Part shown: positions 59,501 through 62,500 of the stretch, piece after piece
How the letters are laid out: every line of letters begins with the position of its first letter
Numbering within the stretch: the stretch's first letter is position 1
Origin: a virus
Lineage: Duplodnaviria > Heunggongvirae > Uroviricota > Caudoviricetes
Length of the DNA: 64,000 bases
IMG/VR virus record: IMGVR_UViG_2541047938_000006
Direction: 5' to 3' (one strand)
Program-made: the position numbers

Positions 59501-62500
59501 AACCGCCTGCTCAATGTGCTCAAACTTCACCATGCAATTGACAGCAGTGTGCTCTTTATCTGCCCATTGCGGATTGCTTATTTTTTCCACATTCATGTTC
59601 ATCTCCTGTCTGTCAGTATGCGCGCTGGAACAGCCCGATGCTTTCATTATCATTTGTCGACGTAATTTCATTACACACCATCCATGAGCCCGGAACTGAG
59701 GATAGTATGCCGTCAATGCCATCGGTGTTAGCTTTCATATAGTTTCCGTTTTCGTCTTTGATTAGGGCGCATCGCTTAAGGCGTGAACCCGATACAGTTT
59801 CTCCTGGCTGATAGGTTCTGCCGATGTCGGTTATATACGGGCCTAGTGCGGCAATAATGTATGTTCCGATGCTGTAAATTTCCCCGGGTACCAGCCTTCC
59901 GGTTGGCCCTTGTGGTCCCTGTGGTCCGGGTTCACCTGTCGGGCCCTGTGGACCTGTCGGGCCCTGTCTTCCTGTTTCTCCCTGCAAACCTCGTGGCCCC
60001 GTTTTACCCGCAGGACCTGCCGGACCAACCGGCCCCGGAACACCCTGTGCCCCCGCTGGTCCCCTTTCACCTCGTGGCCCTGCCGGGCCTGCATCACCTT
60101 TGGGACCAGCTGCACCAGCCGGTCCCTGTGGGCCTGCGGGCCCCACTGCTCCCGCAGGTCCTGTCGCCCCCTGCAGCCCACGGAGGCCCTGCTCACCTTT
60201 CTGTCCTGCAGGCCCCTGAGGTCCGGGTTCACCGCGCTCACCTTTCGGACCTGTGGGACCTGCCGGTCCTTGCTCGCCCCTGTCACCTTTCGGTCCAGGT
60301 ATGCTTTCTCCCGACGGGCGGGTTGTCGCAACCTCTTCTGCCTTCTGTTTCGCTGCCCTGGCCTCATCCATTGCCGCCTTCACAGCTTTCGGTGTGGCTG
60401 CCTTCGTTTCATCATCACTGTCCGTTGCGCTGCTTAACTGCACAATTCCCTTCTGTGCCGTCGTCGCATCTGCCACATTTGCTGCGCTGCCCGCCGGGCC
60501 TGGCTCCCCACGAGGTCCCTGAGGTCCGGCTTCGCCTCGTTCACCTTTCGGACCTGCCGGACCCGGTTCACCTCTCTCTCCGGCGGGGCCCTGTAATCCT
60601 TGCGGACCACGTTCCCCGGGTTCCCCTTTCGGCCCCGCAGGTCCGGTCTCACCGCGCTCTCCCTTTGCTCCTGCCGGCCCCGGCTCACCTCTCGGACCAG
60701 CATCCCCCTTTGGTCCCTGAGGCCCCCCGGGTCTCCTTTTTCGCCTCTGGCCCCGGTTTCACCACGCGGCCCCATTGCTCCCTGTGGCCCGATCGCACCA
60801 CGTGGGCCAGATGGCCCTGTTGCGCCAGCTGGCCCCTGCACTCCCTGAGGTCCCCGTTCTCCTGTATCACCTTTCTGGCCCGGTATGCCCTGAGGTCCGC
60901 GCTCTCCCTGCTCACCTTTCTCCCCACGCGGACCCGCCGGACCTGTTTCACCACGAGGACCAGCATCACCTTTCGGCCCTGTATCGCCTTTAGGTCCTCG
61001 TGCATTCTCAGCCATACGTCTGGCTTCTTCAGCACTAACCGTAGCAGCCTCAGCACGTTTAAGAACGTCTCCGGCGGCCTCCTGAGCCACTCTGGCGGTT
61101 TCAGCATGTTGTCTGGCCTCTTTCGCGTCTGCTGCCGCTGCCTTTTCAGACTCACCTGCCCGGGTCGCCGCCTCTGCAGCCTCACTGGCTTTTTGTGCAG
61201 ACTCCGTCGCTTTGCTTGTCGCAGCCTTCGCGCTTTCTGATGCAGTCTTCGCACTGGCAGCAGCGCTTTCCTTCGACTGTGAAGCCTGATTATTTTTCAC
61301 CGCCGTGTCTTCGTTCAGACGACGAATCGTGGCAAGGTCATCCGCCACATTGTTCTGTATCTGCCGGAAATCTGTCAGCAGTTCTCCGGGTATGCTCACC
61401 TCAACAAGACTACGCCGTAACAGCATATTGAGCGTCACCGTACTTTCAGTCCCCTCAATACGCACACGTCCGTAGACAGCAGTCTTCCCTTTCACCGTCA
61501 CAGAAACCGCATACTCCCCCGGCTCCAGCGTCATTCCGTAATACCCGCCGTCACGAGTCACTGCTGACGCACTGGTGCCGCTGAGCGCATCCGGTGAAAC
61601 TGTCAGCGCCGTCAGGGTAATATTTGCGCCTGATATCGCCTCACCATCAGGAGATTTCAGCGTCCCCGAAACAACAACACTCACATTCCACCTCCGTTAA
61701 ACACCTTCTTGCGGGCAGACAATGCACTGTCTGCACCCTGTTTAATCCCGAGCTGCTCAACAAAACTCTGATAATGTTGTGCTGCCAGTCCTGACTCTGC
61801 ACCACCGGCTGCATCCTTGCTGAATGCACGAAACAACATCCAGTCAACCAGCGGGTTAACATAAGCCTCTTCCAGCGGTACAGGCGTGTCATCATCCTGC
61901 GTCAGAACATACACCGCCTCCGGAATGCGGCTGACCACAGCATCAACACTCACAGCCTCCTCCGGTGCCGGAAACAGCCAGAACACGCGCGGGGCAAGAT
62001 CACTGCTGATAAAGCATTCCGGTTTCCCCCTCAGCATGTGCCAGTCGGGATACTGTGCATCAAGCACCTCACGGGATTGCGGTTTTACAGCACTGCCATC
62101 GCTGAGGCATATCACGTCAAGAAGCTGTATTGCGCCATCAGGCAAAGTCTGACGTGCACCAGGAACACAATTCAGCGTCTCCAGACTTGCGCCTGCATCC
62201 GGCCTTGCCAGAATCACCGCCCGCACAGCATCATTGTAATAATCACACAGCTCAGCCAGAGGCCAGCGCACCATCATCGGGTCAACCAGTTGCGTGTTCA
62301 CTCGTCCGATGATTTCAGTAATCGTCGTCATCAGTAAAACCTTTGTCTGCGGACAGGATTGCGGTATGAGGAGTACGGACTTGTCGCCAGTGTGTCGCGA
62401 TATGCCCGACGGATACCCTCAGAAAACAGCACAGAGAAATACTGTGCGCGCGACGGGTCTGACCATGAAACCCCGGTCTGCATGAACAACCGTTCAAGCG

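Follow-up and report, generated by a model that had tools for sequence, protein, structure and literature searches.

The 64,000-nt stretch of caudoviral DNA analyzed here (IMG/VR record IMGVR_UViG_2541047938_000006; from here on, the window) contains a tail-fibre gene that has lost a single base from a homopolymer and is consequently read in two frames. The frameshift pseudogene is real but ordinary: it belongs to a known type of prophage tail fibre, and lesions of this kind are already known. Taken as a whole, the arrangement is very probably explained by a plain inactivating 1-bp deletion in the EPcl-type fibre gene of a 933W-like short-tailed prophage. The disrupted gene spans 59613..61684 on the minus strand, a strand assignment that refines the earlier note on this DNA, and comprises 2073 nt (690 aa) once repaired. 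In that form, it is 99.6% identical to the intact, 2073-nt CDS of WP_147692397.1 from E. coli UCPROB-002. The proximal reading frame (ORF A; 60434..61684, minus strand) begins with GTG and encodes 416 aa, of which 321 are native and 95 are out of frame, before ending with TAA (60434-60436). Its native part consists of a globular N-terminal domain, a coiled-coil-like Ala/Glu/Lys region, and the first 92 aa of collagen domain 1. The Gly-X-Y repeats are perfect until ...GEKGDPGG, after which the sequence turns Arg/Glu-rich. The orphaned distal part (59613..60722, minus strand) is still fully open in the second frame and encodes, in order, the rest of collagen 1 (60483-60716), the Phage_fiber_2 repeat (60339-60464), collagen 2 (59892-60296), and a C-terminal domain of 92 aa (59616-59891). 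As an ORF of its own, it comprises 287 aa when counted from the GTG at 60476 (ORF listing) or 276 aa from the GTG at 60443 (gene caller), and no convincing ribosome-binding site was found at either of these codons. Inserting one C at the C6 run results in a single 690-aa ORF in which N-terminal domain, coiled coil, collagen 1, Phage_fiber_2 repeat, collagen 2, and C-terminal domain follow each other; removing one C yields no such ORF. The ORFs, together with the orthologue alignment, bear out what had been noted earlier from the sequence, namely that a 1-base frameshift at a C6/G6 run within the collagen-like region splits the gene, that the downstream GXY repeats and a conserved 19-aa motif can be read only in the second frame (found here to stay open to 59613), and that one extra C restores a fibre then estimated at ∼700 aa, its exact length being 690 aa.

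The run, C6 on the plus strand and therefore G6 in the coding sense, is located at 60723..60728 (feature on the minus strand). The earlier note had recognized the run itself but placed it one base off, at 60724-60729. It is the sole G/C run of at least six within 59000-62000, the whole 64-kb window holding four, and it lies in the codons of the collagen interruption G-D-P-G-G-P-Q-G (60714..60736, minus strand; GGA GAC CCG GGG GG- CCT CAG GGA). In the intact gene, the Pro-Gly-Gly of GDPGGPQG is coded CCG GGG GGG CCT and thereby forms a G7 run; no other G/C run of at least six exists in the wild-type gene, and it is here that the deletion falls. The intact orthologues aligned were those of UCPROB-002 (99.6% identity), 2015C-3121, G1/2, and SW070917, and the alignment puts the lost base unambiguously in the run, with G7 in relatives L001-L004 and G6 in the window. 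At 95-99.6% identity, the orthologues have an unbroken gene and a G7 run, and between the window and its closest relative, L001, G6 versus G7 is the sole indel across the entire fibre CDS.

The same G6 allele, with the same split pair (416 + 276 aa), was found by look-up of the exact 276-aa product in contig NMGO01000029.1 of GCA_002538945.1, and also in the Logan reassembly of sequencing run SRR3987722. Over 19 kb, these two sequences show no difference, and GCA_002538945.1 and SRR3987722 probably stem from one and the same isolate; compared with the window over 14.4 kb, each has a single SNP (window 61482). The G6 allele is thus carried by at least two nearly clonal isolates that were sequenced separately, and its independent confirmation comes from these two isolates or projects. 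Because G6 recurs in a second assembly and in a reassembly from reads, one SNP apart, the 1-bp deletion is, with high probability, real, heritable, and fixed in the lineage rather than an assembly error. The first option of the earlier note had been such an error, that is, a true G7 run whose consensus lost one base in the GC-rich, near-palindromic homopolymer CCCGGGGGGGCC. Homopolymer miscalls are a common artefact, the window is a draft scaffold (GCA_000461255.1, KE702357.1), and the frame downstream is perfectly preserved, all of which would suit this explanation. However, it does not sit well with the finding of G6 in another NCBI assembly as well as in an independent read reassembly, where the SNP shows that one record was not copied from another. 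Furthermore, the ∼46 other sequences with this tract come from many projects and read G7, so that the motif is not miscalled systematically, and the ∼35 kb compared with close relatives revealed no other homopolymer indel on the side of the window: the C7 run at 57320-57326 (plus strand; an intact G7 run of the adhesin gene) is preserved, and the indel at 48711 belongs to the relative, whose annotation records a frameshift there, and not to the window. Sequencing or assembly error is, on this evidence, highly improbable.

A comparison of the tract in orthologous fibres, which had been proposed as a check, gave a uniform result. The 65-nt segment around the run was detected in 18 of 5,426 complete E. 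coli genomes searched, and the best place of each record (nine secondary places were left out) was 100% identical to the G7 version in 18/18; the exact G6 version occurred in none of these 18 genomes. G7 was likewise found in 3/3 phage records (GER2, PhiR5_2, and PhiR12_3), 9/9 IMG/VR contigs, and 16/16 metagenome contigs, amounting to ∼46 other sequences from sets that may overlap. The reading frame was open across the tract in the G7 loci wherever the gene was complete. A search of 5.8 billion proteins for the out-of-frame tail with its junction returned four matches and no other G6 alleles; the four were rejected as such, being spurious alternative-frame ORFs on short contigs. Their sequence is out of frame before as well as after the tract, which is what reading through a G7 gene in its alternative frame should give. 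A look-up of protein cluster members did not contain the exact 416-aa and 276-aa products, and a pattern scan of species-representative genomes gave no match.

In more diverged homologues, the amino acid motif persists without the run. The fibres of the Stx phages P13374, AU5Stx1, Ss-VASD, and TL-2011c contain GDPGGPAG coded CCG GGA GGT CCT, with no homopolymer. Since these relatives code the same motif without it, the G7 run reflects incidental codon usage in a single sublineage, and a contingency tract has not been conserved here. Among the complete orthologues in L001-L032, the length of the open frame across the tract ranges from 1794 to 2118 nt, and DNA similarity to the window falls after approximately position 1011, 1067, or 1620, depending on the relative; length and similarity pattern together indicate that the number of collagen repeats varies and that the distal half has been exchanged mosaically. 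Two relatives show interruptions of their own. In L021 (metagenome contig OHAQ01003310.1), the G7 fibre is broken after ...GERGEAGPQ, ∼200 nt past the tract, by unrelated sequence that is possibly the end of a mobile element; this would be an independent way to break the same gene. In phage TL-2011c (L016; NC_019442.1, 1501-3611), the annotation divides the fibre into gp56 (121 aa) and gp57 (582 aa), whose CDSs overlap; this split is near the N-terminus and thus in a different place from that in the window.

The uniform tract length also bears on the third option of the earlier note, slippage-based phase variation, in which the G run would be a contingency tract that toggles the fibre between on and off, at high frequency, within the prophage or phage population. 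The frameshift does lie exactly at the gene's only homopolymer, and hypermutable polyG tracts are reported from receptor-binding genes of Campylobacter phages (Sorensen et al, 2021, Cell Rep 35:109214, as cited in PMC10877375). The two cases share a G homopolymer in a fibre or receptor-binding gene whose length shifts the frame, but the precedent does not fit: the tract studied here has length 7 in all ∼46 relatives, is missing from diverged homologues, and has not changed within the mutant lineage. No length polymorphism was observed among the ∼46 other sequences, the two isolates of the G6 lineage, one SNP apart, both stay at 6, and the diverged homologues, with their CCG GGA GGT CCT codons, have not conserved the tract. 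The 65 nt around the run are, moreover, 100% identical in all carriers, which gives no sign of selection for the run itself. Contingency tracts of G/C are typically longer than 7, and mismatch repair is functional in E. coli. Phase variation is therefore disfavored by the lack of length polymorphism and the absence of the run in diverged homologues, and is considered very unlikely. Only a very slight chance is given to a weaker form of the idea, in which G7 on the Pro-Gly-Gly-Pro hinge acts as a low-rate fibre switch in the Eib-prophage sublineage, or G6 is leaky via −1 slippage; if true, virion infectivity would be tuned while the lysogen keeps the adhesin cargo of the prophage. Of the three options in the earlier note, the decayed gene, in the sense of a real inherited deletion, was hence chosen, on the recurrence of G6 and on G7 in the relatives.

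A further explanation would leave the deletion real but the fibre partly functional: −1 ribosomal frameshifting on G_GGG_GGC, or transcriptional slippage, could still yield some full-length product. The zero-frame sequence CCG GGG GGC is formally an X_XXY_YYZ heptamer, a −1 shift on which would restore the fibre frame, and a GGAG is located 4 nt upstream of it. Programmed −1 ribosomal frameshifting is what produces lambda G/GT. The window resembles programmed systems such as dnaX and IS911/IS3 in that the heptamer is in the correct frame and the distal protein in the −1 frame, but it differs from them in that the motif class is poor, the downstream structure unexceptional, and the arrangement unconserved; on motif class, structure, and conservation, programmed −1 frameshifting was rejected. 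Translational correction of indels is known to occur (PMC5009743). In E. coli, however, GGN and heterogeneous ZZN codons are poor shifters (PMC4066793): G_GG.G_GG.U without a stimulator resulted in 0.018% frameshifting, and G_GG.G_GG.C is not among the motifs exceeding 0.10% without stimulators (PMC4066793). Nor does the RNA downstream offer such a stimulator, as the downstream 103 nt fold no better than shuffled sequences (MFE −37.1 versus a shuffle mean of −34.8, z = −0.73; 39/200 shuffles equal or exceed the native fold). The gene is in frame in every relative, and the two-frame arrangement was seen in no homologue; therefore, no recoding signal can have been selected. Rescue of the fibre by recoding is extremely unlikely, and the inactivating deletion remains the preferred reading.

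The type of fibre follows from the domain content of the repaired protein. Collagen (PF01391) was matched with E = 2.5e-48 (Pfam), the GXY runs covering residues 230-322/324-401 and 464-598, and Phage_fiber_2 (PF03406) was detected between the two collagen domains, at residues 408-449 (E = 3.2e-18, Pfam). A CarboxypepD_reg-like domain at residues 5-86 scored above its Pfam cut-off. The match to phage_tail_N (PfN; PF08400; residues 1-128, E = 3.9e-4) reached 20.9 bits and thus stayed below the cut-off of 26.6. PfC (PF06820) was absent, residues 599-690 having no Pfam match at E ≤ 0.01. The repaired protein also matches PHROG tail-fibre families. Collagen-like proteins of EHEC prophages, termed EPcl, are organized as PfN, coiled coil, Col, Pf2, and Col, and their first collagen domain is interrupted at a single conserved motif, G-x-P-G-G-P-x-G; the modules PfN and Pf2 had originally been recognized in lambda Stf (Ghosh et al, 2012; PMC3368898). 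The window fibre shares with them the Ala-rich coiled-coil-like region, the succession of Col, Pf2, and Col, and the interruption in the first Col domain, which reads GDPGGPQG both in the repaired protein (residues 317-324) and in the orthologues; its N-terminus is possibly PfN-like. This layout assigns it to the EPcl type of collagen-like tail fibre, the prophage being short-tailed and 933W/Sepvirinae-like. EPclB of the short-tailed Stx phages (933W/Sp5) has been proposed to bind YaeT/BamA (PMC3368898). Because no PfC was found in its C-terminus, the window fibre is not EPclB proper (933W Z1483-like), being closer to the classes EPclC*/EPclD with other C-termini, and it differs from EPcl proteins in general in that the copy in the window is frameshifted. 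Matches to Stx-phage fibre DNA end at position 1357 of 2072, and the C-terminus differs from that of the Stx-phage fibres.

The label Stf, under which the gene had been described in the earlier note, holds to the extent that the Phage_fiber_2 module is shared with lambda Stf and that phage_tail_N gives a sub-threshold match, but the protein is not lambda Stf itself. That identity was rejected on the neighborhood (N4-gp56-type capsid, SU10-type adaptor, fibre, and DUF4376) and on the closest phages, which are Sepvirinae. As an analogue of the lesion, stf of lambda PaPa, compared with Ur-lambda, nevertheless comes closest, a 1-base frameshift splitting a fibre gene with phage_tail_N/Phage_fiber_2 modules into two ORFs. 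The lambda ORFs are reportedly the orf401 and orf314 of Hendrix and Duda in 1992, and those in the window encode 416 and 287 aa. In laboratory lambda, the stf frameshift prevents synthesis and assembly of the side fibre (PMC12617516). The two cases differ in several respects. The phage in the window is short-tailed and 933W/Sepvirinae-like, with an N4-gp56-type capsid and an SU10-type adaptor, whereas lambda is a siphovirus; the window fibre has two collagen domains; the fibre of this phage group may be the main receptor-binding protein, not an accessory one; and the mutation occurs in natural isolates, not in a laboratory stock.

The neighboring genes are intact. Upstream lies that for the SU10-type adaptor protein (61681..62331, minus strand; 216 aa), the stop of which overlaps the fibre start, and downstream that for the conserved fibre partner, a DUF4376 protein of 193 aa assigned to a PHROG 'tail fiber protein' (59015..59596, minus strand). 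At the start of the latter (59581-59599), two compensating 1-nt indels 12-17 nt apart (T6 versus T7 plus an extra T) distinguish the window from L001 and L004; as a result, start codon and first residues are altered, but the protein is not broken. Just past fibre and DUF4376, Eib-like in position, a trimeric autotransporter of 486 aa with YadA head and anchor is encoded (57191-58651, minus strand). In close relatives, the order is portal, N4-gp56-type capsid, adaptor, fibre, DUF4376, YadA-like adhesin, tail-tip fibre, and a giant LPD38 protein. The most similar phages belong to the Sepvirinae, the short-tailed Stx-phage group, namely Oslovirus (GER2, TL-2011c, P13374, and Ss-VASD) and Traversvirus (AU5Stx1). 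The prophage adjoins ynfE-ynfF and is inserted in ynfG, which is truncated in a relative; it is flanked, at the end opposite to the adhesin, by homologues of IbrA (PAPS reductase) and IbrB (36997-38852, plus strand). Frameshift calls seem to be common in other assemblies of this prophage family: in L004 (E. coli SW070917; 9080-10341, equivalent to window 48079-49341), a gene for 420 aa is frameshifted at a T6C4/T6C3 junction, and in the G1/2 assembly, the capsid and LPD38 genes are. Elsewhere in the window, a 486-aa ORF (3884..5344, minus strand) joins what we take, from our own reading of the translations, to be a Nu1-like small-terminase N-terminus to a His/Ser/Thr-rich tail-fibre C-terminus; beside it lie a presumably Tfa-like ORF (3309..3884, minus strand) and then a presumed Pin/Hin-type invertase (2621..3211, plus strand). 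The whole region (2621-5344), which adjoins dicB/ydfD, resembles what a deletion would have left of a cryptic lambdoid prophage.

Past the tract, the distal frame of the fibre gene is free of additional stops and indels. In this distal part, the window and its closest relative differ by six substitutions, of which 4/6 are shared with an intact relative (L008); private to the window are two distal substitutions and one proximal to the tract. Because the distal frame has not decayed and private substitutions are few, the deletion is, by this measure, recent. An old, decayed pseudogene was rejected on the same grounds, there being no distal stops or indels and 4/6 distal substitutions being shared with an intact relative. 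The one G:C pair was most likely lost from the G7 run via replication slippage. Translation would then be native through Gly321 (GDPGG) and continue over 95 out-of-frame codons to the stop, as the reading frame dictates. The predicted 416-aa product would retain the virion-proximal N-terminal domain and the coiled coil but lack the rest of collagen 1, the Phage_fiber_2 repeat, collagen 2, and the C-terminal domain, presumably the receptor-binding or trimerizing end. The orphaned distal product, devoid of an N-terminal domain, could probably not attach to the virion. Going by this architecture and by the analogy with laboratory lambda, particles of the prophage should lack functional fibres.

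The split fibre gene opens no new question, but it has consequences for how this DNA is to be read. The 416-aa ORF and the 276/287-aa ORF should be annotated as one frameshifted EPcl-type tail-fibre pseudogene, not as two proteins. Where the P-G-G-P interruption is coded as G7, as in this sublineage, the gene is most fragile at that hinge. The prophage should be scored as probably adsorption-defective, although the other late genes in the window look intact.
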